Shown: one piece after another, positions 6,996 through 63,348 of the stretch
Layout of the letters: every line of letters begins with the position of its first letter
Numbering within the stretch: position 1 is the stretch's first letter
Origin: a virus
Virus record (IMG/VR): IMGVR_UViG_3300023171_000009
Location: 9,113 to 73,112 of that record
Direction: 5' to 3' (one strand)
DNA: 64,000 bases
Notes under the pieces: model-generated
Database searches by the model: none
What the model was told of the DNA's origin: nothing
Seen by the model: only the letters and a program-made list of their open reading frames with translations
Translations under genes and position numbers: made by a program

Positions 6996-7367
6996 TTAAA
7001 TACTCCTGTTAAGCGCGGCTTGGATTGCGTAAGGAGGGAGCATCCCGATTTGAATGCATCCCTTGATGTCTTCAGTTGCACCGATATAAAACATTGCACG
7101 AACTATGCGTTTGATCACGTCAGTAATGTCTTTCTGCAAAACATCGATTCTACGGGAGTCGCCATCGAAATAGAGAGTAGAGATACAGGCTTTCTTTTCA
7201 AGGGCGGTTAAATGCTGAAGTTCTCCAAACATTCTTTCAATGCGAGCCTCATCGATTTTAAGAGCCTTGGCTTGATCCTGTTTCATTTCGATTGCGTTCA
7301 TGTTTCGAAAGTAAGCAGATTTTTTAGAAGCACAACCCCTTTTTGCAATTATTTCACTTTTTGGCAA
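6996..7367 (-). CDS. Hypothetical protein
   Basis: ORF in packed array. Confidence 0.65.
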   Translation of the reverse strand: MPKSEIIAKRGCASKKSAYFRNMNAIEMKQDQAKALKIDEARIERMFGELQHLTALEKKACISTLYFDGDSRRIDVLQKDITDVIKRIVRAMFYIGATEDIKGCIQIGMLPPYAIQAALNRSI

Positions 7368-7368
7368 T

Positions 7369-7548
7369 TTAACCCCGTCTACTGGAGTAATACCAGACGA
7401 TATTACCTATGATTAACAACATCGCGCCTCCAATCACATACCAAAATAACATATTAAACCATTTTTTTCGGGAAATGTTTGGTTTATACAAATCAATGTA
7501 ACCACACACGATACACAGAACGAAAACTAAGAAGGAGAGTAATTTCAT
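7369..7548 (-). CDS. Small membrane protein
   Basis: Two hydrophobic segments. Confidence 0.6.
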   Translation of the reverse strand: MKLLSFLVFVLCIVCGYIDLYKPNISRKKWFNMLFWYVIGGAMLLIIGNIVWYYSSRRG

Positions 7549-7787
7549 CGTATTCCTTGAGTTGAAGCCACACAATCTTCAGTTAAATGTGGAGACGGCG
7601 GAAAAGGTATCCCCACTCTTGATAACAAGAAGGTTACTTCTTTTATCCAAGAATCGCGGTCCACGGCTTCAACAAAATAACATTGTCGCTTTTCTCCATC
7701 CACCCCGAATGTTACGTATCCTTTAAAAGTATCACTTTCCTTGGACCACAGCCCTAGTATTTTCCAACGTTGATACAAGAATTTCAT
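7545..7787 (-). CDS. Hypothetical protein
   Basis: ATGA-coupled. Confidence 0.6.
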   Translation of the reverse strand: MKFLYQRWKILGLWSKESDTFKGYVTFGVDGEKRQCYFVEAVDRDSWIKEVTFLLSRVGIPFPPSPHLTEDCVASTQGIR

Positions 7788-7951
7788 GAAAAGAATAGTT
7801 GTTTCACCCCTCCTGCTAACATCCAACCTGCAAGAATAAAAAGAGCGCTGGAAAGTAAAAATCCATACTCCTCTTCGCCTTTTTGCCTAAATCGATCCTT
7901 CAGACATCTAGCAACCAAAATTAATACAATAGAAGCTAAAATAAATCTCAT
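7784..7951 (-). CDS. 55-aa membrane protein (not in ORF track)
   Basis: MRFILASIVLILVARC...ALFILAGWMLAGG; ATGA-coupled on both sides. Confidence 0.6.
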   Translation of the reverse strand: MRFILASIVLILVARCLKDRFRQKGEEEYGFLLSSALFILAGWMLAGGVKQLFFS

Positions 7952-8427
7952 GATGTTAATAAAGGGCAGGTTGTTAACTCGGGAATTATAGTTCCCTTGA
8001 GTGGTGGATATGAGATAAAATAAATAAATTTATTGGTGATTGGGATTTTACTTGATTTAATCAGCAGTCTCAACAATTCAAACCCGAAATCAAAATTTCC
8101 CCAATTCGCGGCAAACCATTGAGACAAGGACGGGTTAGGGCTTACGCTGTATCCGGGTAGATCAAATCTAGCTCCATAATTTTGATAAGCGTCAATGCCT
8201 GATAGCCTGTAAACATGACCGAGAGCTTTAAACAGATATCCGGTTAAGTAATCAATCTCAGTTTGGCTGTGCTCAGCTATGTATTTTGCAACAATTTCAC
8301 TTTCTGGCCCTTTAGAAAGCTTTGGGTGATAGTCTTTAACCAAGCCCGTGATCGGAGGCTTGAACTGTGGCCGGGGTTCCGGTCTTAAAATAACTTTCGA
8401 CGGTGGTTTTTTTATCTGGAATTTCAT
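7948..8427 (-). CDS. Hypothetical protein
   Basis: Start MKFQIKK. Confidence 0.6.
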   Translation of the reverse strand: MKFQIKKPPSKVILRPEPRPQFKPPITGLVKDYHPKLSKGPESEIVAKYIAEHSQTEIDYLTGYLFKALGHVYRLSGIDAYQNYGARFDLPGYSVSPNPSLSQWFAANWGNFDFGFELLRLLIKSSKIPITNKFIYFISYPPLKGTIIPELTTCPLLTS

Positions 8428-9279: not shown

Positions 9280-9603
9280 TTAATAAGCTTTAAAGGTTTG
9301 AGCTTCTTGATACCAGCTATATCCTCCGCCAATTTTCATTGGTCCGCGAGGGCAGCGTAAAGTTGGTTGTTTGTGATCTGCGTAAGCCCTTCCGCATTGC
9401 CTACATTTTTTGCTTAATTGAATTGTCGAACCATACTCACCCCGTCTATTATCGTAATGGTTTAGGGCGTTTATGATTTTATTAGCTGCAAGGGCGGTTT
9501 TACATGCAGCAAGAACTTCCCCGGACTCCTTTATCACAAATTCGTGATGCCCTGTAGTAGGGTTTATTTCATGCCAGTGGGAATATTTAGGAGGTTTAGG
9601 CAT
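9280..9603 (-). CDS. Hypothetical protein
   Basis: ORF, CXXC. Confidence 0.6.
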   Translation of the reverse strand: MPKPPKYSHWHEINPTTGHHEFVIKESGEVLAACKTALAANKIINALNHYDNRRGEYGSTIQLSKKCRQCGRAYADHKQPTLRCPRGPMKIGGGYSWYQEAQTFKAY

Positions 9604-9607: not shown

Positions 9608-10141
9608 TTATTCTGTAGGGAATTCTATAGCTATTCCTGATTCAAGGACGGTGATTTTCTTGGAAATCCATTGTAAGGTGCTGTCAGCCCAAGAAACTGT
9701 TAGGTTATATTTCCTTGGGTATATTAGGAAATCGTCATTAGGGGTTGCGCACCAAGTATAATCCTTACCCGGTCCCGACAATATCTTTTTTAGCGCTTCG
9801 CTGGCCGAAATATACAGGCAAAGACGCACTCCTTGCCGTTCAAACCGCCGTGCATGGGAGTCAAATGCGTCAAAAGCTGCTTTAAAGGCTCCCTGTCCTC
9901 TTGAGATCGCGTAGACTCTTTTGAACTCTTTACCTTGTTCGATATAAGGCTCAAGTATAGTAGGCGTTCGGGCCACTGCTCCTTTACAAGAAGCGAATGC
10001 TTGATTCAATGAACTTTTTGTTTCACCCGTATGCGGTCTGACTAATACGGAGCGCGCTTGACGTAATGGGCCGGGTTCAAAGTTTGCAATAATTTCATTT
10101 TCTTTTTCAGGTTCAATTTTGATGCCGCGTTTAAGTTTCAT
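9608..10141 (-). CDS. Hypothetical protein
   Basis: Start MKLKRG (or 10159). Confidence 0.65.
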   Translation of the reverse strand: MKLKRGIKIEPEKENEIIANFEPGPLRQARSVLVRPHTGETKSSLNQAFASCKGAVARTPTILEPYIEQGKEFKRVYAISRGQGAFKAAFDAFDSHARRFERQGVRLCLYISASEALKKILSGPGKDYTWCATPNDDFLIYPRKYNLTVSWADSTLQWISKKITVLESGIAIEFPTE

Positions 10142-12407: not shown

Positions 12408-13088
12408 TTAATTGATTGGTCCGTTGATAAGTTTGACTGGACAAATTTTTTGCTTTAACTTATCCATCCATTTATAAACAGTTGCCAACATAAAATCGTT
12501 ATACTGGCTAGGCGGTATGGTTTGGCACCCCCACGAACTTGTGCCGCTATTACCTCCACGATGATAGTTGATAGCACCATAGATTTCCTCAACGTAGCGG
12601 GCATTTTTTGCGCCGGGTTTTCCATTATCGCGGATTATAGGAAAATGCCCGTAGTTCTCAATACCGTATTTTTCGGCCTGCTCCTCGTCCGGTTGACGTA
12701 ATGCTTGATAAGCTCCCTTGTGAAGTCCTCTTATAAAGTAGTGAACACCTTGATCAAGCATAGCGTAAGGTTTTCCAAGGGCAGCGTTCCACCCGATAAT
12801 GCTAGGGTCTGTATTAGCATTGAATGCGTGAATCCCTTCAGGAGTTATAACAAAAGCGGCATCGTCGTAATCCCCGACATCATTCACCCTTGGTTTCCCT
12901 ATAGTGTCGGCATAATAAGCCCTAACATTCAGAATACAAAGTTTATATTGATCCGGAATAGCCGGAACTGACTTTACATACGTAAATGCAGAGCCGTCTT
13001 TTGGAGTTTTATACTCCGATCTAGCTAGCTTTAAAATAAGGCTTTCGGGAGCCTGCGGGCGCGAACGTGGGATTTGTCCTGACATACT
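12408..13088 (-). CDS. Putative endolysin, L,D-transpeptidase (YkuD)-like catalytic fold
   Basis: INYHRGGNSGTSSWGCQTI resembles the H-x-S-x-GC catalytic motif. Confidence 0.6.
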   Translation of the reverse strand, partial: SMSGQIPRSRPQAPESLILKLARSEYKTPKDGSAFTYVKSVPAIPDQYKLCILNVRAYYADTIGKPRVNDVGDYDDAAFVITPEGIHAFNANTDPSIIGWNAALGKPYAMLDQGVHYFIRGLHKGAYQALRQPDEEQAEKYGIENYGHFPIIRDNGKPGAKNARYVEEIYGAINYHRGGNSGTSSWGCQTIPPSQYNDFMLATVYKWMDKLKQKICPVKLINGPIN

Positions 13089-13593
13089 ATTTTTTAGGTA
13101 AAGGTCTAGCCACAATTGGCCGTGATTTAGGGTATTTCGAAAACTCTAAACACTTTGGATCAATAGGGCCAGTAGTTGATTTAACAAATTGAAATACCGG
13201 CGGTAACTGAGGTTCTCCTAGAGCATACGGCTCTGTCGTTACAGAATGTTTTTCAGCGCTAACAAAAATAAAATTCGAAGTATATTCGGTTCTAAGCCAA
13301 GAACTTCCCCTGCAAATTCCAATAACAAACCTACTCCACGCTTCTTGTGCAGTCCTTCCGCGTTCCCCCATTAAAGTGTGCGTGACGTGCTTAGGGATTG
13401 GCGTTTGTCCGCCGTCTCCAAACATTTTTGGGTTATAAACTTTAGCACTGAGTCGCCATCTATAAACAACGTTAGTAGCTACGTCGGTAAATGGATTTTC
13501 AGGAATAACGCTCCCTTCAAGGGCGGGTATTTCTCTTGGTAAAGAAACAGGCACAACCTCCTTAGCTTTGGAAATAATTCTTTTTAGTTTCAT
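13087..13593 (-). CDS. Hypothetical protein
   Basis: ORF. Confidence 0.65.
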   Translation of the reverse strand: MKLKRIISKAKEVVPVSLPREIPALEGSVIPENPFTDVATNVVYRWRLSAKVYNPKMFGDGGQTPIPKHVTHTLMGERGRTAQEAWSRFVIGICRGSSWLRTEYTSNFIFVSAEKHSVTTEPYALGEPQLPPVFQFVKSTTGPIDPKCLEFSKYPKSRPIVARPLPKK

Positions 13594-15118: not shown

Positions 15119-16431
15119 TGCTTTAGTCTATATAGAGATAAATATCTGGGAGTATAATTTACAGTATCCCAATGAGTATAAGTTAAACAGTCCTCTATCT
15201 TATCAGCACGCAAGGAGAGGTTATACGGTGGAAGATCAAGATTTTGTTCGCGATATCCGTAATTATCTAATGACTCTCCCCATGTCGGACTTGAACGGTT
15301 TTCCTTGCGTTCGCAATAGTTAGTAATGATTAAATAATCTGCCTTACTGTTCAGAATATTTTGCAGCAATTTCAAAGTTGATTCATCGGACAAATGCTGT
15401 GTGCATTCGCGACAAAGTATTAAGCTTGTTGCGGTAAAAGGTAAAATAGGCTCGTTTACTATATCCTTAACACAAAAAAAATGCTCAACTTTACTAACTA
15501 CTTTTATATCTTTAAGATTATTAAGCTCGATTATTTCAGGAACTATATCCATTCCAAAATAGGTCGCAACATCCATTGTAACAAAATGCGATTCCATCCA
15601 AGTAAAAAGTCCACAAGGAGCGTCTATCAAAGTATCTACATAATATTCTCTTATTTTATCACGTATGAATCTAGCGTCTTTGACGGTGTTTTCATGTAAA
15701 GAACCCGGTCCGCTGGGATGCTCATTTCCCCATTTTCTTTCAAAGTAAGTCCGGGTAAAATTTGCCTTTAAATCGGCTTCTGGAGTAACGTTAGGGTTTG
15801 TAACTTCAGGTTTCTTCCATCGCGCCTTCCATTCATGAACTGCATAACTGTCTTCATGTGGCGGGCAAACATCTTCATTCCAAGAATACGGATAGAAATA
15901 ACGCTTAGGTAAAATGTTAACGTCTCCTATTTCACCAATTAGACAAACGTTATCATTCCATTGCCCATACATTTCTTTCCACAATGTAGATACAAGGACA
16001 GGGCCTGCTACATTGCAGTATCCGGATTTTACTAACTCAACAAGGTCATACCGTTGCAGCCTTCTATTTAGTTCAATAAAGAATGGATGGTCGGGCGGCG
16101 AAGCCATCGCACCATTAGCGATTGTGGTAAACCCTTCGACGCAAACCCAAGCTTTTCCTAGCAAATCATCAAGAGGCTTGCAGAGAGTAAAATCTATATC
16201 CAAATAAATACCGCCATGTTTTATAAGCGCTTGAACTCTTGAAACATCTGCTAGGGTCGCCCACGCTTCCAGCTTAATTAATTCCTCTTTCTGCGGATGC
16301 GTGACGTTTAATAGATTCAGCCAATTTAACTTCCATCCTGGTATAAACTCCATCCATTGGGTAGGGTTAGATGGAAGTTCTTCCGGGCCGTCCCAAAAAT
16401 AATGCAAGATTTTAGGTATCATATTATTCAT
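15115..16431 (-). CDS. Fusion of DXD glycosyltransferase (GT32/OCH1-like) and SAM-dependent methyltransferase-like domain
   Basis: IPKILHYFW, GGIYLDID, AGP; C-half SGPGS, IDAPCG, GMDIV, ILCRECTQHL. Confidence 0.8.
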   Translation of the reverse strand: MNNMIPKILHYFWDGPEELPSNPTQWMEFIPGWKLNWLNLLNVTHPQKEELIKLEAWATLADVSRVQALIKHGGIYLDIDFTLCKPLDDLLGKAWVCVEGFTTIANGAMASPPDHPFFIELNRRLQRYDLVELVKSGYCNVAGPVLVSTLWKEMYGQWNDNVCLIGEIGDVNILPKRYFYPYSWNEDVCPPHEDSYAVHEWKARWKKPEVTNPNVTPEADLKANFTRTYFERKWGNEHPSGPGSLHENTVKDARFIRDKIREYYVDTLIDAPCGLFTWMESHFVTMDVATYFGMDIVPEIIELNNLKDIKVVSKVEHFFCVKDIVNEPILPFTATSLILCRECTQHLSDESTLKLLQNILNSKADYLIITNYCERKENRSSPTWGESLDNYGYREQNLDLPPYNLSLRADKIEDCLTYTHWDTVNYTPRYLSLYRLKH

Positions 16432-17071: not shown

Positions 17072-17352
17072 TACAAGGCGAGTTCTGGCTGTTTGTCTGA
17101 CTTAGTGATGTTAAGATAAACCACATATCCTAATCTAGCATATACCCCTTCTGGTAAAGGCTCACCAGCTTTTAAAAGAGCTAACCCTTCAATATGATCC
17201 TCTCTTTGCATTGCAGGATGATCTTCCGGATTACTGGAATGTGCTATAATCATCGGTGATTTTGGTGCATCGACAATAATTTTAAGATCGGAAATATCCG
17301 CACCATGTTCCTTACATAATTCTTCAAGGGCGGTTGTGAATGGGGTGTTCAT
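17071..17352 (-). CDS. Hypothetical protein
   Basis: Coupled ORF. Confidence 0.6.
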   Translation of the reverse strand: MNTPFTTALEELCKEHGADISDLKIIVDAPKSPMIIAHSSNPEDHPAMQREDHIEGLALLKAGEPLPEGVYARLGYVVYLNITKSDKQPELAL

Positions 17353-18129: not shown

Positions 18130-18167
18130 TGAGTATACTAAACTGAATATCGATAGTTGCAAACGCG

Positions 18168-18548
18168 TTATGTGTTTTGCTGCAACGATTTCACTTTTTT
18201 ATTATACTTAGTTTCTGGTATTGGACAAGGCGTTAATTCAGGATATTTGCCTGATTCTTGAAGCTCTTTAATCCTTGAATACCTGCGGTCTTTTCCACCT
18301 GTTTTTATAGCACTTTCTAAGCTCGCGGCATCACCTCTGCTAGCGCAATATTTAATAAAGACAAGCTCAACCGGTCGCCTGCTACGCGTATACATCGCGG
18401 GTGATTTAGTTCCGGGCTCTCCATTATGTTCATCAACACGACGTTCAATATCCAATGTCATACCTGTATAAATTGAACCATCTGCGCAACGTAACATGTA
18501 AACACAATATCGACCTTCTTCTTTTTTACTGAATTTGAATTTTCCCAT
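18168..18548 (-). CDS. GIY-YIG nuclease
   Basis: YCVYMLRCADGSIYTGMT.DIERRVDEHN. Confidence 0.9.
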   Translation of the reverse strand: MGKFKFSKKEEGRYCVYMLRCADGSIYTGMTLDIERRVDEHNGEPGTKSPAMYTRSRRPVELVFIKYCASRGDAASLESAIKTGGKDRRYSRIKELQESGKYPELTPCPIPETKYNKKVKSLQQNT

Positions 18549-18933
18549 ATTTGTTATCGTATTCTTCTTTTAACTCTATCCAATATTTAGCGGCAAACTT
18601 TGCCTCTCCTTTTACAATCTTATCCTTAGTCGTAGAAAGCACAACACTTAACATATCAGATAAACGGCGTGCTTCTGTTAAGGTGCCTGTGGCCACTATC
18701 CAAAGAACGTCAAATTTCTTAAACCTAGCTCTCCTTTTTCCTGAGATTAACGAACTTCTGTTATGCTTTGGCCATACGTATCCGTGACTATGCTCCTTTA
18801 TACGTTGTTGTATCATATCGGTTACTCCAACATGATAAAAACATACGGTTTCCTCAGTGTATTTAGCTTTACGAAATTCACGCAAGATATAAATGCACGG
18901 AACAGGTATCACTTCTTTTCGTTCTGCCAGCAT
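18526..18933 (-). CDS. GIY-YIG-like protein
   Basis: CIYIL...YHVGVTDMIQQRIKEH. Confidence 0.6.
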   Translation of the reverse strand: MLAERKEVIPVPCIYILREFRKAKYTEETVCFYHVGVTDMIQQRIKEHSHGYVWPKHNRSSLISGKRRARFKKFDVLWIVATGTLTEARRLSDMLSVVLSTTKDKIVKGEAKFAAKYWIELKEEYDNKYGKIQIQ

Positions 18934-21503: not shown

Positions 21504-21788
21504 TCAATTCTTAGGTAGAATAGCTTTTAAAGTTTCTATGCTGTAATCAGTAGCGTCTACTCCGTTAACTAAGACTTTAATTTCAACTAGTCCGGAATCA
21601 ACAGCGTTCGATAAAGTTTTCCATTCATCATACCTAAAACTAAGGTTTTTATGGGTTTTCTTTAGTCTTGAAACAAGGGCGGCATCTTCGCACTTGCTTG
21701 CGGCATCTGCGCTAAGATACGTATGTTTAGCACTTTCACTTTTGCTCCAATGAAGCGCTAGCTTCAACAAATCTTGCAACGATTTCAC
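21504..21788 (-). CDS. Hypothetical protein
   Basis: GTG start overlaps a 14-bp site. Confidence 0.6.
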   Translation of the reverse strand: MKSLQDLLKLALHWSKSESAKHTYLSADAASKCEDAALVSRLKKTHKNLSFRYDEWKTLSNAVDSGLVEIKVLVNGVDATDYSIETLKAILPKN

Positions 21789-22387: not shown

Positions 22388-22433
22388 AGAATGTTAGTAT
22401 AGCAGATTATTTTAATATGACAAGGACGGCTGT

Positions 22434-22774: not shown

Positions 22775-23056
22775 TTACTTATAGTAAGTATATTTGCTAA
22801 AATAGTCTAAATTGATTGTTATAGCCCTTGCGGCTGCCAATTTAAGCTCATAGGCTTTAAAATCGTAGTCCTTTATTGAGAATTCACGAATTGGGTCAAG
22901 TATTTTTCCTGTATCGACTAATTCTCTAAGTCGCTCTTTAGTAACAAACCAAATCCTAGATTTATCAAATTGTTCAAGAAGACGTGTAGTGCTTAATGAA
23001 AAGTGATCTGGATATCCTTTATGACAAGGGCGGTCGCTAAAACTTACTTCTTTCAT
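22775..23056 (-). CDS. Hypothetical protein
   Basis: ORF. Confidence 0.6.
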   Translation of the reverse strand: MKEVSFSDRPCHKGYPDHFSLSTTRLLEQFDKSRIWFVTKERLRELVDTGKILDPIREFSIKDYDFKAYELKLAAARAITINLDYFSKYTYYK

Positions 23057-26130: not shown

Positions 26131-26148
26131 AAAGTGAAATCGTTGCAC

Positions 26149-34549: not shown

Positions 34550-34594
34550 AGCAAAGTTACTATAGGTAGGGTTGGTAATAGGTCAAGGGCAGCT

Positions 34595-44776: not shown

Positions 44777-45241
44777 TTAACGTTTTGGGGCATGGCAAAG
44801 AATTTTAATTTCACCATTGGATTTTCTAACCGGCGCTCCTTCCAAAGTATAACCACGGTCTTTAATTACTTTCATTTGAAGCGCGTAATTATATTCAACT
44901 GTCAAAGCTCTAAAATGATCACTCTTTACCTTAGAATCAAAACCATCATATAGCTTGTTTCCAAGGACGGATGAAACGTATCCGCAAAAATCATCGAATA
45001 CAGGGATAAACTTACCGTCCTTCTTTATAAATCCTATGTCATATGGGCAGTCTTTCAGCTTTAACACTAAGTCTGCCGGTGTTCCGTATTTATCCATAAA
45101 CTGGTCAGGGTAATACATACGGGGAACCGCGTTTTCTTCCAGTTCACACTCAACGCCTTGTTTTTTAAGACTATCAACAGCCTGTCTTAGCACGGCTTCG
45201 CTAGTAAATGGAACATCTTCGCAAGTGGTAGTATGACTCAT
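44777..45241 (-). CDS. DUF1257 (Ycf35)-like protein
   Basis: MSHTTT...LRQAV...DIGF...FDDF...GY. Confidence 0.7.
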   Translation of the reverse strand: MSHTTTCEDVPFTSEAVLRQAVDSLKKQGVECELEENAVPRMYYPDQFMDKYGTPADLVLKLKDCPYDIGFIKKDGKFIPVFDDFCGYVSSVLGNKLYDGFDSKVKSDHFRALTVEYNYALQMKVIKDRGYTLEGAPVRKSNGEIKILCHAPKR

Positions 45242-48199: not shown

Positions 48200-48364
48200 T
48201 TACATTCCACGGGTAATTTTTTTAACAAGACCGCATTTATAACGATATACAAGGGCGGACCGGCCATTGTTCAACTTTACCATAAAAGCTTCAATGTCGC
48301 GAACCATACCTTTTGAAAGGATTGGGTAAGTTTGGCCGGAAGTTGTAGTGATTGTTTCGTTCAT
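48200..48364 (-). CDS. Small early protein, leaderless
   Basis: ATG 6 nt after -10 (48371-48376); starts MNET. Confidence 0.65.
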   Translation of the reverse strand: MNETITTTSGQTYPILSKGMVRDIEAFMVKLNNGRSALVYRYKCGLVKKITRGM

Positions 48365-51440: not shown

Positions 51441-52196
51441 TCACTGTCCTAACGGTTTATTCTGCGAAATATCTGGAAAATAGTTAATAGGCGGGAGCGT
51501 TTGCTCAAAAACCTTAGCCCAAAGTAATCCAGTCATTTGAGAATTATGCGCCCTTGTTAAATTAAGGACTTGAGATTGTGCTCTAAATTGCGTTTCAACT
51601 TCTTTAAGCTTTTCTCCTACTGACGTTTTCAATACTGCCAGTTCATGGGCTTGATTGTTATATTCTGATTTCAACTCTGCTATGTCACGGCCTTTATCGC
51701 CTCTATCAACTTCAGAAGCCGTAGCTTTCTGGTTCAAGGAGGCTAGAATTCCGGACGCATTAAATAAGTCCTGAGCATTTCTACTAACGGTTGAATCAAG
51801 TCTTGAAATATCAGCACGTAAAGGGATTCCATAACTATCAACGTAGCTTCTAACGGTAGAGACGCCCCAAGTCATTAACCCACCAGCCACTAAACCAAGG
51901 ACGGCTATTCCTGTTTGAATCGTAAACTTTTTGTTATCGTCCTGCCCTTTAGTTTTGGAATTTATAGTTTGCGCCAAGCTTTCATGACTTTGGTGAATTG
52001 CTTTTTCCAGATTTTCCTGATTGCTTCGCTGGATTCTGGAAAGATTCTCCATCCCTTCCTTAGTATTAGCGGCTAAATCAGCTAAATTTTTAGCAAACGT
52101 ATTCTGTTGGAGTTCCAGTAAAACTAACCGCTCTCCTAATGCGTAATTACTTACTCTTTTTTCAGTAGTGGTTGGACTATCCGATTCATTAGACAT
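51441..52196 (-). CDS. Single-pass membrane coiled-coil protein
   Basis: TM GIAVLGLVAGGLMTWGV flanked by heptads. Confidence 0.6.
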   Translation of the reverse strand: MSNESDSPTTTEKRVSNYALGERLVLLELQQNTFAKNLADLAANTKEGMENLSRIQRSNQENLEKAIHQSHESLAQTINSKTKGQDDNKKFTIQTGIAVLGLVAGGLMTWGVSTVRSYVDSYGIPLRADISRLDSTVSRNAQDLFNASGILASLNQKATASEVDRGDKGRDIAELKSEYNNQAHELAVLKTSVGEKLKEVETQFRAQSQVLNLTRAHNSQMTGLLWAKVFEQTLPPINYFPDISQNKPLGQ

Positions 52197-52210: not shown

Positions 52211-53383
52211 TTATAAAGTTTTTCGCTTTGCCTTGTTATCCGCTTTTATGATAGCCTTGTTAGTGGCTTTGAGTTGTTTTCTCATCGCGGCAGCCGCTTC
52301 ATTAGCGGCCTTTCGTTCAGCTTCTGTAGCGTTTTCTCCTAACCCATTAACTTGGACAGCAGGCTTATCACACTCTGCTGAAGTCACGTATCCTCCGGTT
52401 TTATCAAAAGAATGAGTTACACTCTTTAAATGCCAGTATGACGGCATCTTAATGCCCGTTTCCACATCATAAAACCCTTCGGTTTTTATCATCGTCTCTG
52501 CCTTAAGCTTAGGGTTTCCTCTATAAAGAGAAAACTCAAAAGAATGCCCCTCTACTTCCAGCATCGAAGCCCGTCCCGCCGCTGCCGCGTTTGCCAACTC
52601 TTCTGTAGCATACACCCCCGGTAAGGCTAGTCTAGCATTTTCTTTGCGATCTGCTTCGCCTGAATCAGTTCTAACAACTTTTACGGCATATGAATATTTG
52701 CCAGTATCTTTATTATATACATTAGCCACTACTGCCCCGTAATTACTTGTGCTCTGATTTAACCAACTCCAACTAGAACAAGCGTCTTCTTTTACGGTAT
52801 CTGATAGTGCTTGGATAGTTCCGACTTTTGCAAATAATAAAGTTTTACCACTAACTTTAAAGCTGGCACCATAACGTAACCCAAGGGCAGTTAAGAACGA
52901 TTGATCGGACTCGTTGCGTTGAATCATCGAACTTGCAATAATACCATAAAATTCAGGATCAATTATGGGCGTCATTTCGTTGCGCTGAGCAACGTGTTCA
53001 ACAATATCAGCTAATGATTGATTATCGTAAGTAGTGTTATGAGTTTCTTTCCACATTCCTCCGGTAGCCAAAGCGTGAAAATGAAAAGCAACCTCTCTTC
53101 CTCCGGATTTACTTTTTTGAACGCTGGACTCATCAAAGATAAAATCGCCCATGTTAACCATGCCTTCGTATTTAGGCATGTTGGACGCTTCCTGATAGCC
53201 TAAAAATAACGTAGCTTTGGCTCCTCTTTTGGGGATTTGAATAGCGGGAACGGCATCCAATCTAACAACTAACCTATCGTTGTTAAAGCCATAAGTATCT
53301 TGTAAAGTTAACCCTATGAAGCGATCCTGTAAACGGTCTGTATAGTCAATTCCGTTTATGTAAAATATGTATCCGGGTTTCAT
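52211..53383 (-). CDS. P2 gpD-like (late control D) baseplate hub protein
   Basis: DRLVVRLD, QRNESDQSFLTALGLRYGA; position after gpU. Confidence 0.85.
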   Translation of the reverse strand: MKPGYIFYINGIDYTDRLQDRFIGLTLQDTYGFNNDRLVVRLDAVPAIQIPKRGAKATLFLGYQEASNMPKYEGMVNMGDFIFDESSVQKSKSGGREVAFHFHALATGGMWKETHNTTYDNQSLADIVEHVAQRNEMTPIIDPEFYGIIASSMIQRNESDQSFLTALGLRYGASFKVSGKTLLFAKVGTIQALSDTVKEDACSSWSWLNQSTSNYGAVVANVYNKDTGKYSYAVKVVRTDSGEADRKENARLALPGVYATEELANAAAAGRASMLEVEGHSFEFSLYRGNPKLKAETMIKTEGFYDVETGIKMPSYWHLKSVTHSFDKTGGYVTSAECDKPAVQVNGLGENATEAERKAANEAAAAMRKQLKATNKAIIKADNKAKRKTL

Positions 53384-53893: not shown

Positions 53894-56446
53894 TTAGTAA
53901 GGGCTAGTAGCGTTATCTTGACCCGTCCGGGCAGCATGGTCAGAGTCGGCTTGTTGCTCCGTATTCTTCTCATCAAGTTTTGCCTTAATGGCTGTAGCCA
54001 AGGCTTCCGCATTATCAAGCGGAACTCCAGTTATCGTAATACTAACGTCTCTGATAGCTTGTAACTGTTTCTTCTCAGAACTAGTCATCGCTGAAGGCTG
54101 CTTAGCCTCAAGTCGTTTTTGATCATCAATCAATCTAGCATTGGCATCCGCTGCTTGTTTTAACGCGTCTTGATCACCTGCCTTAAATTTAGTAGCATAA
54201 TCGATAATGCCTAGTTTACTTTCAAGAGCGGCCTTTTCGGAGTCCATCCTAGAAATTGCTCCTTTGACTTGATCAAGTTGCGAGGGAGCGTTTTCATATA
54301 TTTTTGCATCCAAACTTCTAGGAGCTAGCCAGCTTTTATCAGCGGTCGCCGCATTATATTTATCAACGTATCCTTGCTGTGTTGCCTGCTGTTGAAGCAT
54401 TAATGGCTTCTTCGCTTCAATATCAGCAATTGATTTTCGGATTTCATCCTTAACATAAGGATTATCTACTAGCTTTTTATAAGCAGCATTCCTATCTTCA
54501 GGGTTAGCAGAACGTGTATTAGATAGTTCGTTAGCTAAATTATCGAATTTACTACCTTTAAGAAGCCCAGCACCACCATCAAGGGCAGCGTTGCTCTTTT
54601 CCTTCATCCCGTTAGCTATACCTTCACCAATTAAACTGCCGACTCCATATCCTATAGATACTAACGCCGCACCGCCAAGTAAAGTTGCGAAAGGTCCACC
54701 GGCAGCAAAGAACCCTCCTACTTTAGAGGATACTCCACTGTTAATTCCAGTTCCAAGAGCGGTGCCCGCCGCTTGACCGGCTGCGGGGGCAATACCAGTC
54801 ATATAACGTAGAGCATTACTAAAACCGCTTAACGCTAGTTGACCTGTTTGAAAAAGTTTAACTGCCGGGCCGACGGCTAAGTTTAACGCGGTTATTGCAG
54901 CCACATACTTGATTGTTGTGGAAACCGCCTGCGGATTTTGCGCGATAAATTGGCTTACAGAATTAACAAAAGGTCTGATATCCGCTACTATATCTTTAAT
55001 AGCCGGGGCAAGAGTTGTTCCAACCTCAGTTGCTAGGTTTAAAACTGAAATCGTTGCAGTTTTTAATTGCTCCTGCGTAGTGCGCAAAGTCCTTTCAAAG
55101 TCTCTATTGAATTCGCCCGCGCTGTTTGTAGCAGCTTTGAATGCCGCATCAAACTTATCCATGTTGTTCATTGCAGCCATCAGTCCATTTCGGAACTGAG
55201 TGTCTGTGGCGATTCGGCTAACATTCTCAATCTTCCCTTGCGTAAGTTCTCTAGTTTTATCGATAAACGACTTAATAACGTTCCCACCTTGCGCTCTAAC
55301 TTCCTGCAAATAGCCGGGCAAATCAAATCCTAGTTTTTCTTCATATGCTTTAGATACTTCAGGAGAATCAATATGCCCTCTAAGATTTTCAAAGTTAGTA
55401 TAAGCTGTTGCGGAGTCAGGAGCACCTACCCGGATAGCTTGCATCAAAGAAGCTAAATACTTAGCACCTTCAACACCTTGAACTCCAAATTCCTTCATAT
55501 TAGCGGACATACCGCCAAAGCTTGCAGCAAAATCTTTAGCTTCATACTGACCAACTTTACCAGCCGCTGCTAGCACATCAAGAAAATTACCAATCTGTTC
55601 AGGCTTAATGGCCAGATTCGACATTGCCGCTGCATTGGTAGTCGCGATATCTTGAATTTGAATACCGTAAGCTGTCGCGGCTTTCCCACTATCCTCTAAA
55701 GCACCAAGACCTTCACGCAAAGGATTTAAACCAGCGCTAACGTATACTTCAAGGGCGGATTGAAGCTCTTTAGTCGTCTGATTTGTTCTCTCTCTACCAG
55801 ACATTTCCTTAATCTGGCGTGCCATGTTATCACGGTCCTTGTCGCTCAGGTTACCAGTGTTAGCTATAAGCTGATTACGGTAATCGAAACCGGAGCTTTG
55901 TAATACACTTCCGGCAATACCGGAACCAATAGCGGCGGAACCAATCGGGAAGCTAGCAGAATTCCCCCTATTCGCTAGATACCCGCCAAGTCCACTTCCG
56001 CCGCTATTGTTCCCACCGGTAGCAACTCCGTTTCCAACCCTACCGGAATTACGGATAGCCTCACGGCTAGCTGTTCTGTTGGCAGATTGGAGAGCACGTT
56101 CTCTGGCGGCAATAGAAGCCGCTACTTTCCTTTGTGCTATAGATTCTTGTTCGGCTAGCCCTATGGCTCGCCTAGTGGTTGCCATTTCTCTATTTCTGGC
56201 AGCATATAAAGCGTCAGTCCGTTTTAGACTAACGCCTAAAGTTCTCCCTAATGTAGCTAATGATTTGTTTAATGACGTGGTAGAAGCTGCCGCAACTGTA
56301 GTAAGTTTTTCAAAACTTGTTAAATTTTTAAGGACGGCTGAAAGTCCCTTGTCTAAACTAGCAATCCGCGAATCAAGAGTCTTGAACGCGGAAAGTAGCT
56401 TAGGATCAAGGGAAGCTCCAATCTCAATGGAAATAGCTTCACTCAT
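53894..56446 (-). CDS. Tail tape measure protein
   Basis: 850 aa Ala/Gly-rich helical protein with phage minor-tail core, after chaperone. Confidence 0.92.
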   Translation of the reverse strand: MSEAISIEIGASLDPKLLSAFKTLDSRIASLDKGLSAVLKNLTSFEKLTTVAAASTTSLNKSLATLGRTLGVSLKRTDALYAARNREMATTRRAIGLAEQESIAQRKVAASIAARERALQSANRTASREAIRNSGRVGNGVATGGNNSGGSGLGGYLANRGNSASFPIGSAAIGSGIAGSVLQSSGFDYRNQLIANTGNLSDKDRDNMARQIKEMSGRERTNQTTKELQSALEVYVSAGLNPLREGLGALEDSGKAATAYGIQIQDIATTNAAAMSNLAIKPEQIGNFLDVLAAAGKVGQYEAKDFAASFGGMSANMKEFGVQGVEGAKYLASLMQAIRVGAPDSATAYTNFENLRGHIDSPEVSKAYEEKLGFDLPGYLQEVRAQGGNVIKSFIDKTRELTQGKIENVSRIATDTQFRNGLMAAMNNMDKFDAAFKAATNSAGEFNRDFERTLRTTQEQLKTATISVLNLATEVGTTLAPAIKDIVADIRPFVNSVSQFIAQNPQAVSTTIKYVAAITALNLAVGPAVKLFQTGQLALSGFSNALRYMTGIAPAAGQAAGTALGTGINSGVSSKVGGFFAAGGPFATLLGGAALVSIGYGVGSLIGEGIANGMKEKSNAALDGGAGLLKGSKFDNLANELSNTRSANPEDRNAAYKKLVDNPYVKDEIRKSIADIEAKKPLMLQQQATQQGYVDKYNAATADKSWLAPRSLDAKIYENAPSQLDQVKGAISRMDSEKAALESKLGIIDYATKFKAGDQDALKQAADANARLIDDQKRLEAKQPSAMTSSEKKQLQAIRDVSITITGVPLDNAEALATAIKAKLDEKNTEQQADSDHAARTGQDNATSPY

Positions 56447-56927
56447 AGAGTCGGTTTAGAAATTTCTCTATATGTTTTTATCCACTCTAATATTTCATCT
56501 TCAGTTTGTTCCATGAAATAAGAAACAGGAGTGCAAAGACCGATTGCAACCATTGCAATTTCCCTGCGTAACCTACTTAAAGAACTGAACCTACAAATTC
56601 GAAAAAACGGTTTTCAAGAGTGTGTGAGTCCTTCCATGACAGAGTATAATACGCATCCCTAGTAATTGAAATATCTTTTCCAAGCGTCGGATGTTTAACG
56701 CTGGCGCAAAGCAAAATACCTTCCATCACTACCAAAGCAGCCGGGGCGTTAGAGCCTGCATTTGCAAGGGCAGTAAACCGGTCCTTGGCTTTAGGCTTGC
56801 GGATATACAGCTTGGTATATTCTCTTTTGTCTAGGGTTAGAGGTTCTGTAAGTTCAAATTCCAGAACATCGGATATAATCGGGCTTTCAGATTCTGAAGT
56901 CTCCGGAGTAGGGGTGTCTTTCTTCAT
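56443..56927 (-). CDS. Extended chaperone gpE+E' via -1 frameshift at T TTT TTC (56601-56607)
   Basis: -1 frame open to a TGA overlapping the tape-measure ATG; extension ...TPVSYFMEQTEDEILEWIK. Confidence 0.8.
56577..56927 (-). CDS. Tail assembly chaperone (P2 gpE-like)
   Basis: LTEPLTLD..EYTKLYIRKPKAKD; position between tube and tape measure. Confidence 0.85.
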   Translation of the reverse strand: MKKDTPTPETSESESPIISDVLEFELTEPLTLDKREYTKLYIRKPKAKDRFTALANAGSNAPAALVVMEGILLCASVKHPTLGKDISITRDAYYTLSWKDSHTLENRFFEFVGSVL

Positions 56928-56952: not shown

Positions 56953-57459
56953 TCAGTGGCCTAGCGCTTCACGCATTCCGGCAGCAAGATCGACGCCACC
57001 CATAATATATTTTCCGTTGATTACGTCGATATCACAAGCCGCTTGTCCGTCAATTTCCAGCGCGTAGTGCGTGGGAGACATAGAGAACATTAGGGTATAC
57101 TCACCGTCTCCCGGTTTGTGCTCCATACCCGTTGCCCCTAGCACCATGCCCGTTGCATAAGCCACAACAGTCTGTTCCGATCCGTCAAGCCCTCTAGCGT
57201 ATCCTCGGAAAGTAAACTGAGTCTGCCCTTTTCCGATAGTGCCAACAAGGGCGGCATTATACTCAACTACTCCGAAAGAAAGAGTTAGTTTTTCACCGCC
57301 GATAACAATATCGGAAGCATTCCACATGCCTCCTCCGGAATGCTCCTTAGTGCGTAGGCTTAGGTCAGGAAGTTTAACATCAACGTGAGACGCGGCTAGT
57401 CCTACGCCGTCAATATACACATCCGAATTTTGAAGAATTCTAGGCGTTTTGTTACTCAT
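56953..57459 (-). CDS. Major tail tube protein (P2 FII-like)
   Basis: VKLPDL, GGGM, FTFRG, IDVIN.KY..GGVD. Confidence 0.9.
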   Translation of the reverse strand: MSNKTPRILQNSDVYIDGVGLAASHVDVKLPDLSLRTKEHSGGGMWNASDIVIGGEKLTLSFGVVEYNAALVGTIGKGQTQFTFRGYARGLDGSEQTVVAYATGMVLGATGMEHKPGDGEYTLMFSMSPTHYALEIDGQAACDIDVINGKYIMGGVDLAAGMREALGH

Positions 57460-59213: not shown

Positions 59214-59513
59214 TCACTTTAGCGGATACACCCGCCCTTGCTGAGAGTAGTAATTCATAGCGCCGGAAATCACCTGCTTACCTACATATATTCCTATTCC
59301 CCCTAAGATATCTCCTACCACTTGCGCTTTACTTTCCTTCTTCAGCCTAACTAATGGAATATTACCACTTGTTTGAACCGACGCAAGCTCTTTTTCCCTA
59401 ACTTTTAAGGTTTCAACGCCGTTCTTATCATATAGGCTAGCAATAGGTGAATTATCAGAACTTGCACAACCTATGTGGAGAAGTGAAATCGTTGCAATAA
59501 ATAAAGCTTTCAT
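59214..59513 (-). CDS. Lipoprotein
   Basis: MKALFIATISLLHIG-C. Confidence 0.65.
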   Translation of the reverse strand: MKALFIATISLLHIGCASSDNSPIASLYDKNGVETLKVREKELASVQTSGNIPLVRLKKESKAQVVGDILGGIGIYVGKQVISGAMNYYSQQGRVYPLK

Positions 59514-59514: not shown

Positions 59515-60942
59515 CTAGGTAGTCGTTACGGACCATCCTTTACCAGTCGCTACAGTAGTAGAAGCTCCGGCACCGGGGTTACCTTTAACGTTGATGTTTT
59601 TAGTATCGCCTGTAGGAGAAGCCCCAACCGCATTATACAAAGCCAATATTGTTGCAGATTGCAAAGCGTTATCATTTAGTTTCAAGGACGACACAAGCCC
59701 TGTGTTAGCCTCGGGGAAATTAGTAATAGTTTTGAAAGAACCGCACCCATAAAGCTCCAATCGTGTAATACTTCTTAGGTCACTTCCATCAAACGCCTGT
59801 AACGTTGTTATATTTCCTCCCACTAATTCCGCTAAGCTAAATAATCCGGAACCGCCAAAGAATATCAAATGCGTTGAGGATATGTTTAGCGCTGTTAGGG
59901 CAGGCATCCCCGCGCCGCTGAAGAAAACTAGACTAGGCGTATTTTGTAGTTCCAACAAGCCAAGACGATTAAATCCCGCTCCGCTAAAGGTCACTAGCTG
60001 CGTATTCGTGGCAGTCAAAATAAGAAGACTGGAAAGACCCGTCCCTTCCAAAACAGTAATGAGCGTGTTAGACAGATTCAGATTGATTAGCTTTTTCAAG
60101 TTAGAAAGATCAACAGAAGTAATAGGGTTAGTTGATAGATTTAAGGTAGTTAAATCGTCAAAGCCCGTTCCTTTAAATGAAGTTAAGCTATTAGAAGATG
60201 CGTTAAGGGTAGTCAGTCCTTTAGCATTAAATCCGGATATGCCGGTAACAACCATTCCCGGAATTTGCAAATTTGTAATCACCCCCGCCGCAGCCCATAC
60301 ACGAATTATCTTTACGCTGCTACTGGTGGTCGTCTTGCTAGCGTCAGTATTACTTGTATGCTGCGTGATTGTATTATCCCACCATTGAACACAGTAAGCG
60401 CCAAGATTCGTAAGACAGCGGAACAGAACGCTTCCGGTATCTTTGGTGGTAGTAAACTCAATATAACTTCGGACAGGAGGCTTAGAAGTTATAAATCGGT
60501 TTAAAGAACTAGCTGTTAACTCTATACTCTCCATGTATTTTTCAAGAGTGATAGGAGCACCAATTCCATCGATTAAAACGGCAGTCCCGCCACTAAATCC
60601 GGGTTTGATGGAAACCAAGCCCTCTAAAGCCGCATTAACCAAAGTAGTGCGGTATTTCGCTGATAAATTTACAGGAATATTAATAACCTTAACATCTTCT
60701 TCCCGTGTAAGGTTAACGATCTTTTCGTTATAAGACAAGGGCAGCGTTAAGGTGTCCGTTCCATCGGAAACTCTCTGTTCATCTTTTAGCAAAGATGCCG
60801 GAGCCTGTTTATCAATTCCTCCTTGTGCTATGTGTAACATGTCCCCCGGATTTACTACTGTAGCGACGGGAAAAGAAATAATTTGGTTAGGTCCGGGCAT
60901 AAAAAGAGTTTTAAAAAAGTTAACTAAAGGGGGTAAGTTCAT
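59515..60942 (-). CDS. Leucine-rich-repeat protein in tail locus
   Basis: About ten ~21-aa LRRs (LTTLNLSTNPITSVDLSNLKK...); start at 60942 or 60900. Confidence 0.85.
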   Translation of the reverse strand: MNLPPLVNFFKTLFMPGPNQIISFPVATVVNPGDMLHIAQGGIDKQAPASLLKDEQRVSDGTDTLTLPLSYNEKIVNLTREEDVKVINIPVNLSAKYRTTLVNAALEGLVSIKPGFSGGTAVLIDGIGAPITLEKYMESIELTASSLNRFITSKPPVRSYIEFTTTKDTGSVLFRCLTNLGAYCVQWWDNTITQHTSNTDASKTTTSSSVKIIRVWAAAGVITNLQIPGMVVTGISGFNAKGLTTLNASSNSLTSFKGTGFDDLTTLNLSTNPITSVDLSNLKKLINLNLSNTLITVLEGTGLSSLLILTATNTQLVTFSGAGFNRLGLLELQNTPSLVFFSGAGMPALTALNISSTHLIFFGGSGLFSLAELVGGNITTLQAFDGSDLRSITRLELYGCGSFKTITNFPEANTGLVSSLKLNDNALQSATILALYNAVGASPTGDTKNINVKGNPGAGASTTVATGKGWSVTTT

Positions 60943-61054
60943 AAAAACAATATAACGGATAGAACGAAATATTGCAACGATTTCACATATCAAATCTTAG
61001 ATAGATATTGCCGACGGTCAGGCCTCTGGTGACGGACTCGGGATGCTCATGGTG

Positions 61055-62431
61055 TTAGAACGGCACCGGGATTTCCGCCCGGACTTTGACGGCCCGCGCG
61101 GCATACCCGGCGTCGGAGTAGTGGACGCCGTCGGTCCATGCGGCGGCGTTGTTAGGCGTCCAGACCGGCCCCACCATGGTGTATCCCAGGAAGGGGTCGG
61201 CACCCAAATCCACAAGATAATGCACCCTGCCTCCGCTCACTGCATTGGCTCTTAGGTAGGCGTTAAAGGCGTCTAACTCAGCCGCTTGTGCGTTAGTGCG
61301 GCTTAGTGCTGAGACGGTATATGCCACGCGCTTGCCAGTTCCTGTGCCGATGTTAGCGGCAATGGCTGCGTCCCAATATTGCTCCCAGCGCGCAATCATT
61401 GTCGCCGCAGTCGCTCCTGCGGTGTCGTCATTTACGGCAGCTAGAAAAAATAGCCAGTCGGCGGGGCCAAGACCATCCCATGCGGCAACTCGGCTCGCGT
61501 AGCACTCATCTATCCGTCTCCCGCTTTGTCGGTAGACGCGGGGCCGCCAGTTGGCGGCAACATTCATCCGGGTCAGTTCGTTTTTAAGCAAGGTGTCACC
61601 CTGCCCAAACATGGTGCTGTCCCCATGGTGGGTGACCCGACCAACAATGCTCCCCGTTGGCAGGTAAACTACGCCGTAGGTGGTCTGCGCATAAGTCAGG
61701 GCGGCGGTGATTTCCGGGGCAGTCAGCACCCGATCCCAGATTATTGTCTCAATATGCGGATTGCTGAAGGTTTGGGGCAGTTCAATATCTGTCCGGACTA
61801 CGGCGGCACACGCGGAAAATGTTGCCGTATTCGCCACGTCGTTCACGTAAATGTTCAGCGCGGAGGCCCCGAAGGTTACCAGAATGGCGAATGGCCTGCC
61901 TCCGCTCGGGACTTTGAGGGCTGATGATTTGAGCGTCACGCCATCAAACACCGTCACCACCCCGGTTCCGCCGTAAAGAGACACGCTGACAGCCCCTCCG
62001 CCTGCCCGGAAAATCTGGGTCGATGAAGCGGCTCCATTCTCTTGGTTGATCCGGCCAATCAACAAGAGCGTCTGATTTCGCTGGTCGAAGTTCCTTGTTA
62101 GAAGCAACGAGTTGGCGTGAAAAGCATTCACCTCGTTCGAGGAAAGCACCTCACCGTCTGTTGCATTCCAGGTTGGTCCGAAGCCGCTAATGGAAAGCGG
62201 GGTGCCTGCGTGCTGATCAGGCCACAGGTTCACTGTAGCCAGATTAGCGGCCCCTGTCAGGCTTGACGCCTTAAACACGCTGGTCATGCCGGGAACCGTC
62301 GCCGACAGGGCGGACGATGCCGAAAACCGGGTCTGCGCCAGCGCGGGGGATGCCAGCGTGAGCCCTGGACCTTGCGCGGCGGCAGGCAGCATAGCGCCCA
62401 GCAACGCCATAATGATTCGGAGAATATTCAT
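61055..62431 (-). CDS. Secreted-type protein with beta-rich N-domain and SGNH/GDSL hydrolase domain
   Basis: Signal MNILRIIMALLGAMLPAAAQ; GDS, AAVND, DGVH. Confidence 0.8.
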   Translation of the reverse strand: MNILRIIMALLGAMLPAAAQGPGLTLASPALAQTRFSASSALSATVPGMTSVFKASSLTGAANLATVNLWPDQHAGTPLSISGFGPTWNATDGEVLSSNEVNAFHANSLLLTRNFDQRNQTLLLIGRINQENGAASSTQIFRAGGGAVSVSLYGGTGVVTVFDGVTLKSSALKVPSGGRPFAILVTFGASALNIYVNDVANTATFSACAAVVRTDIELPQTFSNPHIETIIWDRVLTAPEITAALTYAQTTYGVVYLPTGSIVGRVTHHGDSTMFGQGDTLLKNELTRMNVAANWRPRVYRQSGRRIDECYASRVAAWDGLGPADWLFFLAAVNDDTAGATAATMIARWEQYWDAAIAANIGTGTGKRVAYTVSALSRTNAQAAELDAFNAYLRANAVSGGRVHYLVDLGADPFLGYTMVGPVWTPNNAAAWTDGVHYSDAGYAARAVKVRAEIPVPF

Positions 62432-62436
62432 GGCGG

Positions 62437-63348
62437 TTAGGGCTCGATGGCTGAGTAAACCCGGCAGGCTGCGTCCGTTGTTCCGAGCGGGACGATGGTG
62501 ATGGTGGCGGTCTTCCCCGCCGCAAGGCTGACTGGCAGGGCAGAGCCTTGAGGCTTCCAGGCCGGCCATGTGAGAGTGAAGGTCGATACCCCGCCCGTGA
62601 GGTAAAGAGTTAGCGGCTTTCCTGACGCCAGATTATTCGTCGTAAACGTGGTGTTGCCCGCCAAAGTATAGGTTTTCCCCGGATCGCCCGCGAAATCCAA
62701 TACTGTCCCGCCGGTCAGCGCTGAAATTGTATACGTATTATTCCCGATGGTTGTTCCCGCGATGGTGCCGCCCGTGATCGCAACGGCGGCGGCGGATTGG
62801 GTGGCTATGGTGCCGGTCCCGGCGGCGGCGCGGAGGGCGGCGGCATCAGCCAGCGCCAGCACGGCGCGACCGTAACTGGTGGTGGATAGCGCCGCGATGG
62901 CGGTTAAGTCGGAATCAAGCGGCTGGGACGCGGCAATAGCGGCGGCCTGCGCGGCTGCTATTGCCGTGGCCTGCGCGGTGCTGACCGGCTTATTCGCGTC
63001 AGTGGTGGCGTCCAGTATGCCTAATTTCGTGAAGTCCGCAGGAGCTAAAAGACCAGCATTTGTTCCTGTAGCCAAGGACAGCGTAACTCCTGTTCCGTTA
63101 GAATTGGCCATTACGTAATTCGTAGGTGAAGCCGTGCCTGTCAGGTTAGAGGCAGTTAGCGTCCTCATTTCCGTAGGCGTTATCTGCCTCGCCCTTGCAC
63201 CAGAAGCCTGACTGGCATCATAAACGGAAAAGTAATCCGCTGTTAGATCAAGGGCGGATGCTGTTGTTACAGGAGCCGGATAAATAGGCTCATCGGATTT
63301 TGCAATCGTTGCAAAAAGAAGTGTGAGTAGGAATAGTGTGTATTTCAT
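62437..63348 (-). CDS. Tail-fibre-like protein with N-terminal signal peptide
   Basis: DANKPVSTAQ, QPLDSDLTAIAAL, GTIATQ..AVAITGG fibre motifs; MKYTLFLLTLLFATIA. Confidence 0.7.
   Translation of the reverse strand: MKYTLFLLTLLFATIAKSDEPIYPAPVTTASALDLTADYFSVYDASQASGARARQITPTEMRTLTASNLTGTASPTNYVMANSNGTGVTLSLATGTNAGLLAPADFTKLGILDATTDANKPVSTAQATAIAAAQAAAIAASQPLDSDLTAIAALSTTSYGRAVLALADAAALRAAAGTGTIATQSAAAVAITGGTIAGTTIGNNTYTISALTGGTVLDFAGDPGKTYTLAGNTTFTTNNLASGKPLTLYLTGGVSTFTLTWPAWKPQGSALPVSLAAGKTATITIVPLGTTDAACRVYSAIEP

Follow-up and report, generated by a model that had tools for sequence, protein, structure and literature searches.

The stretch of DNA analysed here, hereafter the window, comprises the 64,000 nucleotides at bases 9113-73112 of the IMG/VR virus record IMGVR_UViG_3300023171_000009, a linear record of 98,476 bp with a CheckV completeness of 89%, and the element under study is a short asymmetric word, CAAGGRCRG, that recurs along one of its strands (coordinates are those of the window unless given for the whole record). 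The record originates from a leaf-litter metagenome and represents an uncultured phage of ~98 kb. Annotation covered ~75 of the 138 proteins of this phage and identified structural genes for a tail sheath, tape measure, baseplate, capsid, portal and protease; the phage is a contractile-tailed myovirus. It also identified replication genes for a family A polymerase (PolA), DnaB and a DnaG-type primase, and recombination genes for an XPB-like helicase, a RecA/UvsX-like recombinase, a Cas4-like exonuclease and a RuvC-like resolvase, so that the RecA and the Cas4-like nuclease attributed to this phage by the original prediction are both represented by actual genes. Of the open reading frames (ORFs) of at least 50 codons, 138 of 146 lie on the - strand; hence CAAGGRCRG stands on the template strand and the mRNAs carry its complement, CYGYCCTTG.

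The original prediction had drawn attention to a narrower form, CAAGGGCRG, with 19 copies on the + strand and 2 on the - strand. Pattern matching on both strands of the window recovered all of the + copies that it had listed, 19 in number, but three rather than two on the - strand (at 3568, 40086 and 59232), and the whole record holds 34 and 4, respectively. In 100 dinucleotide-preserving shuffles of the window this form averaged 0.74 copies with both strands summed, the maximum was 4, and none of the 100 reached 22. An exhaustive k-mer scan combined with a table of single-base variants revealed that position 6 is also a purine, which gives the fuller word CAAGGRCRG, present 28 times on the + strand and 3 times on the - strand of the window and 53 and 5 times in the whole 98,476-bp record, against an expectation of ~0.4 per strand; the reversed word, used as a control, has 2 and 0 copies in the whole record. 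This amounts to 1 copy per 1.86 kb across the whole genome. Variation is almost absent at positions 2-5, 7 and 9, a purine (R) occupies positions 6 and 8, and single-base variants are rare, which indicates that recognition is sharp. The 8-mer core AAGGRCRG has 72 + and 20 - copies in the whole record, and a C precedes 53 of the 72 + copies. Majority-strand copies extend from 1470 to 97485 of the whole record, and the cumulative GC skew is near monotonic. The spacing between sites is 1.4-1.9 kb, and copies of the core follow one another a little more regularly than expected by chance (coefficient of variation (CV) 0.78 versus 0.98, P=0.02). A short repeat family as the source of the word was dropped, as the flanks of the sites are all different.

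Within the window the majority copies, all on the + strand, take four spellings, for which we give the reading in the mRNA as obtained with a greedy gene caller. The spelling CAAGGGCGG occurs at 7199..7207 (TALE), 9489..9497 (TALA), 13518..13526 (PALE), 17325..17333 (TALE), 21674..21682 (AALV), 23025..23033 (frame 2, DRPC), 48250..48258 (SALV), 55750..55758 (SALE, in the tape-measure gene), 57246..57254 (AALV) and 63249..63257, the last of these within an ORF at 62437-63348 on the - strand that is in the ORF list and was not kept by the caller. The spelling CAAGGGCAG occurs at 12776..12784 (AALG), 34584..34592 (intergenic), 41203..41211 (frame 0, LPL), 43930..43938 (AALD), 46777..46785 (frame 0, LPL, in an AAA ATPase gene), 52882..52890 (TALG), 54580..54588 (AALD, in the tape-measure gene), 56765..56773 (TALA) and 60736..60744 (frame 0, LPL). 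Copies of CAAGGACGG lie at 9643..9651 (TVLE), 26013..26021 (PVLE), 44962..44970 (SVLG) and 51896..51904 (AVLG), as well as outside the main-strand ORFs at 8125..8133 and 22421..22429, while CAAGGACAG is found in an intergenic position at 3659..3667, in a glycosyltransferase gene at 15993..16001 (PVLV) and at 63073..63081, again within the ORF 62437-63348 and outside the ORFs kept by the caller. The three minority-orientation copies are CAAGGGCAG at 3568..3576, intergenic and 91 bp from the + copy at 3659, CAAGGGCAG at 40086..40094 and CAAGGGCGG at 59232..59240, the latter two in genes. To the right of the window, a 394-aa ORF (74458-75642 of the whole record) contains two opposite-strand copies 10 bp apart, at 74646-74664, which face each other and together make up an imperfect palindrome, CAAGGACAG-C-CCGCCCTTG. 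A GC-rich cassette in the tail-fibre region (61010-63050) has no copy, the nearest being those at 60736 and 63073; this would accord with the cassette having been acquired recently, although a site-free interval of 2 kb lacks significance.

The closest relative among the loci that we fetched is a 97,377-bp contig binned in a Chitinophagaceae metagenome-assembled genome (MAG), whose capsid protein is 60% identical. The two phages are syntenic, with 59 of the 138 proteins matching at a median identity of 44% (65% for PolA). The relative carries CAAGGRCRG 31:8, again on the strand opposite the genes, and its core AAGGRCGG, at 52:20, is preceded by C or G, so that its word is slightly shifted to [C/G]AAGGRCGG; the core is likewise more evenly spaced than random (CV 0.75, P=0.008). 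Of the sites in the window's phage, 33 could be aligned with the relative, and at just 2 of these does the relative have the word in the corresponding place. Thus, density and polarity are conserved between the two phages while the positions of the sites turn over. Along neither genome does the polarity switch, contrary to the idea that the skew might flip at an origin or terminus. A third, closer relative was found by protein (PolA 70%, a DUF4815 protein 68%). More distantly, five loci with PolA at 41-45% have neither CAAGGRCRG nor a comparable antisense word; their polar TGAACTCAAGTTCAC proved to be a dyad of promoter- or operator-like character, mostly intergenic and in many cases immediately preceding a start codon. 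In ~60 loci with a capsid protein at 33-43% the word is not enriched and no comparable antisense word is present, the polar degenerate words of these loci being sense-strand Lys-Ala-type codon strings or Shine-Dalgarno sites. A scan of IMG/VR with PolA alone recovered just relatives at 30-40%, none of them carrying the word, a capsid-alignment scan of genome contigs returned the known relative and two distant hits only, and a megablast of a 12-kb stretch against GenBank phages gave no match. One more distant relative (ENA scaffold_944, 32.5 kb) has a modestly enriched sense-strand polar heptamer, TTCGCGG, at 15:0 with ~4 expected, which may be a Phe-Ala-Glu codon string or another polar word.

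Of the 53 + copies in the record, 45 are inside genes and 8 outside the main-strand ORFs. In-gene copies fall mainly in the frame xCY-GYC-CTT-G (36 of 45), which encodes [STPA][AV]L[EDVAG], with 7 in frame 0 and 2 in frame 2; the frames that had been predicted, namely frame 0 for the LPL copies at 41203, 46777 and 60736, frame 2 for 23025 and an intergenic position for 34584, all hold. The preponderance of one frame encoding common residues is what would be expected if the word were a by-product of codon or codon-pair usage, composition or chance in a genome with one-way genes, and yet we regard this explanation as very nearly eliminated. Shuffling synonymous codons within genes yields 3.5±1.8 copies (maximum 10 in 1000 shuffles) and a stricter shuffle that also keeps the codon-junction dinucleotides yields 4.2±1.9 (maximum 10 in 300), versus the 45 observed, in agreement with the earlier view that one codon pair does not account for the word. 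The relative behaves in the same way (30 in-gene copies versus 2.2±1.4 and 2.8±1.5). Further, 36 of the 64 compatible tetrapeptides are spelt with the exact word, and the tetrapeptide itself is 1.9-fold over-represented (64 versus 33.8±5.5), implying that the word has shaped protein sequences. Coding opportunity, estimated from shuffled proteins, is 76.6 positions for the majority orientation and 58.1 for the minority one (1.3:1), in contrast to an occupancy of 45 and 4, and is therefore not the explanation of the polarity. The 8.8 kb outside the main-strand ORFs show the 8-mer core at 11:1, the corresponding figure in the relative is 5:0, and a coding by-product would also have to contend with the ~60 distant relatives that have no such word. 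CAAGGRCRG is thus a DNA-level, strand-polar signal under selection, written through all frames and through non-coding DNA.

Because 138 of the 146 ORFs share one strand, polarity and transcription direction are inseparable in this genome. A polarity that simply follows gene direction would point to a signal acting at the level of RNA or transcription, either CYGYCCUUG in the mRNA or the word as met by RNA polymerase, with a role in processing, pausing or antisense suppression, and the uniform gene strand is consistent with this. Against it, the copies are uniform along genes and unlinked to starts, stops or promoter-like palindromes, and no complementary conserved RNA was seen. Moreover, non-coding sites of both phages pooled are at 16:1, and in the two opposite-strand ORF blocks of the relative, whose ORFs are without homologues, 2 sites keep the genome polarity and 0 flip (likelihood ratio ~7). 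These observations are a weak argument that the polarity is a property of the DNA and not of the genes, and we consider an RNA-level or transcriptional signal very unlikely.

The identity of the reader depends in part on the host. Shine-Dalgarno-like sequences were found in the 30 nt upstream of 2-5 of the 138 genes of the window's phage and of 1-3 of 128 genes of the relative, the leaders being A-rich and G-poor; a near-absence of Shine-Dalgarno sites is typical of Bacteroidota and their phages. Given these missing sites and the Chitinophagaceae label of the bin that contains the relative, both phages probably infect a Bacteroidota host. The MAG of the relative has 150 copies of CAAGGRCRG in 7.0 Mb, 39 of them on the phage contig; the 111 copies in the remaining ~6.9 Mb compare with 279 of the reversed control. 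In 121 genomes of the Chitinophagaceae family and 301 of the phylum the word is at chance level. The densest of the 421 family and phylum genomes has ~1 copy per 11 kb with both strands counted, close to the reversed-word control, which falls short of the ~1 per 5 kb or denser expected of a Chi over-represented in its host, and one genome (G034) has its copies on mixed strands. Hence, the check for the same word in the host chromosome, as put forward in the original prediction, gave no enrichment in the likely host group, and a host Chi, KOPS, SRS or uptake signal is not supported there. The hundreds to thousands of host copies in both orientations that mark an uptake sequence were not found in the MAG, family or phylum genomes; the word presumably resembles the core of the Haemophilus uptake signal sequence to within one base. 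The likeness to host-read Chi, KOPS or SRS advanced in the original prediction is further weakened by the constant polarity and by the recombination genes of the phage itself. In being a G-rich polar word CAAGGRCRG is like KOPS (GGGNAGGG) and SRS (GAGAAGGG), which are read by the gamma domain of FtsK/SpoIIIE and change polarity at the origin and at the terminus, converging on dif, but it differs from them in showing neither a polarity switch nor host enrichment, and general annotation scans found no FtsK-like gene among the annotated proteins. It also recalls the stoperators of mycobacteriophage L5, 13-bp asymmetric repressor sites that are many, dispersed and in one orientation relative to transcription; unlike the stoperators, which occupy the short gaps between the genes of a temperate phage, CAAGGRCRG is mostly inside genes, and neither an integrase nor a repressor was detected among the annotated proteins. 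As the likely host group lacks enrichment, we infer a phage-encoded reader, which is probably a sequence-specific factor that acts on one strand within a narrow phage clade.

A precedent for such a factor is offered by the single-strand nick ('sci') motifs of certain phages, namely TACT/RTGMC in tf and LUZ24 (WACTRTGAC in Rembedalsseter), CGACxxxxxCCTA/CTCCGG in the phiKMV-like phages and R/GCGCRGG in T5. In tf a 9-bp word with two degenerate positions occurs 14 times in a genome of 46,267 bp (~1 per 3.3 kb), all copies being on one strand and all nicked; in Rembedalsseter 13 of 13 copies are on one strand versus 0.7 expected, and 60 relatives retain the word although their DNA has little identity; in phiKMV the nicks are on the non-coding strand; and the main nick site differs between tf and LUZ24 (PMC3517423; PMC11780129). 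By analogy, we tentatively favour the possibility that CAAGGRCRG marks site-specific single-strand nicks like those of tf, phiKMV and T5, a proposal that we hold with considerable doubt. Like the sci motifs, which are asymmetric words of 7-19 bp with few degenerate positions, nearly all on one strand (the non-coding one in phiKMV), mostly in genes, far above chance, host-independent and kept with small shifts in low-identity relatives, CAAGGRCRG has an asymmetric consensus with few degenerate positions and rare single-base variants, and is kept, slightly shifted, in a relative of low identity (a single relative, at 44% median protein identity). Its location on the non-coding strand recalls phiKMV, its uniform distribution along genes is as reported for the tf group, its density of 1 per 1.9 kb is within twofold of that of tf, and the lack of enrichment in the host phylum would suit a phage-autonomous reader. 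Were this the case, CAAGGRCRG would be the recognition site of a nicking system of the phage, packaged or late intracellular DNA would carry ligatable single-strand interruptions with 3'-OH and 5'-P ends at the word on the non-coding strand, and the nickase specificity would have co-evolved with its sites, giving rise to the slight difference in the word between the two phages.

Several observations weigh against nicking. Confinement to one strand is looser, at 53:5 and 31:8 in the two phages versus 14:0 in tf, and the minority orientation is itself enriched over the null in both, with 4 copies versus 0.95-1.09 in the window's phage and, in the relative, 8 versus 1.3-1.4 for the 9-mer and 20 versus 4.6 for the 8-mer core, whereas tf has none on its other strand. 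Opposite-strand copies come in close pairs, 10 and 91 bp apart here and 62 bp apart in the relative, and nicking both could break the duplex; were the word indeed a nick site, the 10-bp pair would give a double-strand cut with staggered ends. The two phages share few site positions (2 of 33), whereas members of the much closer LUZ24 group have theirs in similar places. CAAGGRCRG is also about twice as dense as the sci motifs and has its copies distributed evenly along the genome instead of mainly within one portion of it, and it has a different sequence and occurs in a different lineage, a large myovirus probably of Bacteroidota. Finally, no convincing nickase gene was found among the annotated proteins. 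The sole candidate, and a weak one as a reader, is a 135-aa protein (18526..18933, - strand) common to both phages, 31% identical in the relative, whose match to T5orf172, a GIY-YIG-type nuclease, is below threshold. Density and orientation, moreover, fit the Chi-rich phages equally well, since LLS has 23 Chi sites, 1 per 1.86 kb and 20:3 by strand, P1 has 1 per 1.90 kb and Pseudomonas aeruginosa phage MD8 has 32:0 (Zheng et al. 2025, PMC12315714).

Chi is recognised by RecBCD/AddAB coming from its 3' side, which attenuates the nuclease. A Chi-like signal would switch an end-processing helicase-nuclease, be it the host AddAB/RecBCD or one of the phage's own, from degradation to recombination, and would protect rolling-circle tails or cut concatemer ends, always with the same polarity. 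The resemblance to LLS, P1 and MD8 is close, in that density equals that of LLS and is close to that of P1, the orientation bias is similar (7-10:1), both orientations are enriched with one favoured, no other asymmetric word is as frequent in the genome, as holds for Chi in such phages, and sites come and go between relatives, as proposed for Chi. The recombination module would supply suitable partners: the Cas4-like PD-(D/E)XK exonuclease (28389..29252, - strand) is neighboured by the RuvC-like gene (27787-28428), the RecA/UvsX-like gene (29591-30787) and the XPB-like helicase (31647-32966). The same module, however, sets this phage apart, as the Chi-rich phages described so far are typically without recombination genes of their own and rely on host RecBCD (PMC12315714). 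In addition, the copies are evenly dispersed along the genome instead of crowding towards one end, the word is at chance in the MAG of the relative and the 421 family and phylum genomes, and distant relatives that have PolA, DnaB, primase, DEAD-type helicase and RecA genes lack it. To our knowledge every Chi is abundant in its host, and we know of no Chi reader encoded by a virus. We therefore judge a Chi-like signal to be rather unlikely overall. Improbable too is a virus-encoded equivalent of Chi, in which the Cas4-like nuclease, the XPB-like helicase, the RecA-like recombinase or the replisome of the phage would read CAAGGRCRG on one strand, protecting or processing phage DNA ends and driving recombination-dependent replication without host enzymes. 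The replication machinery could alternatively use the word as priming sites, with the DnaG-type primase (34595..35638, - strand; 57% identical in the relative), a candidate reader, acting with DnaB to start primers of the lagging or displaced strand. The sense strand would be the template, the primer would be pppAAGGRCRG following a 'cryptic' 3' base, and most replication would proceed in a single direction, that of the genes. Consistent with this, the phage encodes PolA and DnaB beside the primase, the spacing is Okazaki-sized and in both phages a little more regular than chance, the relaxed first position is reminiscent of a cryptic template base, the weaker minority orientation would be accounted for if a fraction of replication ran the opposite way, and the polarity never flips. 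Known primases of the DnaG and T7 types, however, read 3-5 bases of the template through their zinc domain, whereas this word has 8-9 specified bases; relatives with homologous primases have neither the word nor a comparable antisense one; and the 15-kb replication and recombination stretch at 26013-41203 holds a single copy between the bounding ones, the intergenic site at 34584. The same region of the relative has 7 copies. On balance priming at the word appears unlikely.

The word might instead be an epigenetic mark on one strand, set by an adenine methyltransferase of the phage or by another base modifier and then recognised during packaging, late transcription, strand discrimination or some other activity of the phage. 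Adenine is present only in the + form, its complement CYGYCCTTG having none, so that a mark would fall on a single strand of each site; methylases that modify one strand (Type IIL/III) typically recognise asymmetric words containing R/Y positions. Both phages encode a candidate enzyme, a 268-aa gamma-class N6-adenine methyltransferase core located to the left of the window among the head genes (4335-5141 of the whole record, - strand), with the motifs FFTPR, DPCIGGGS and NPPW, 44% identical in the relative and not seen in any other fetched locus. This protein has only ~45 residues after NPPW and no target-recognition domain, though, and methylation by itself leaves both the ~100-fold enrichment and the polarity unexplained. 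Its homologues in GenBank phages are distant (26-32% identity), and in Flavobacterium phage laban6-1 the homologue adjoins a gene annotated as an ssDNA-binding domain protein (PF08401), a pairing that we take to suggest an anti-restriction role. Marking of this kind is accordingly doubtful in our view, and about as improbable as a Chi equivalent of viral origin. Evasion of Type III/ISP restriction was rejected, as it explains the polarity and not the ~100-fold enrichment, as was mimicry of, or pairing with, the 16S rRNA tail, to which the word has no known match.

Apart from these candidates the phage has a 961-aa protein (308-3193, - strand) which an Atlas look-up indicates to be, apparently, the large terminase, with an MJ0330_N-type P-loop and an intein of the LAGLIDADG-endonuclease type. 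The copy in the relative aligns over 540 residues only, the protein has no match to the standard terminase Pfam models, PDB sequence searches were empty for it and for the methyltransferase, and an NCBIfam scan added nothing decisive. Other genes of the - strand encode a PAAR-motif protein (13590-13859), a GNAT acetyltransferase-like protein (17701-18162) and a Cpn10/GroES homologue (20783-21076). A second repeat, the dyad TGAAATCGTTGCAACGATTTCA, has half-sites at ~20-26 per strand genome-wide, often at gene boundaries (e.g. 3180-3200). This operator- or promoter-like dyad differs between the relatives, being TGAAATCGTTGCAACGATTTCA here and TTGCAACAGTTGCAA in the relative, while the polar word is kept.

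The word and its lineage are new, and the phenomenon is of a known kind, a polar word that saturates a phage genome. Strand-polar words in phages point to machines that read DNA in one direction, and ~50 years have passed without an explanation for the nick sites of T5, phiKMV and tf. The present phage offers a clean and dense case, with 53 sites, a reshaped proteome, conservation in a diverged relative with complete turnover of positions, and a likely host phylum without the word. If the sites are indeed nicked, the phenomenon would extend well beyond the phages of Proteobacteria in which nicks have been mapped, and if the word is instead a Chi-like or priming signal read by the phage, it would constitute a new kind of viral genome punctuation. 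Either way, CAAGGRCRG provides an easy means of finding genomes of this lineage and of determining their orientation.

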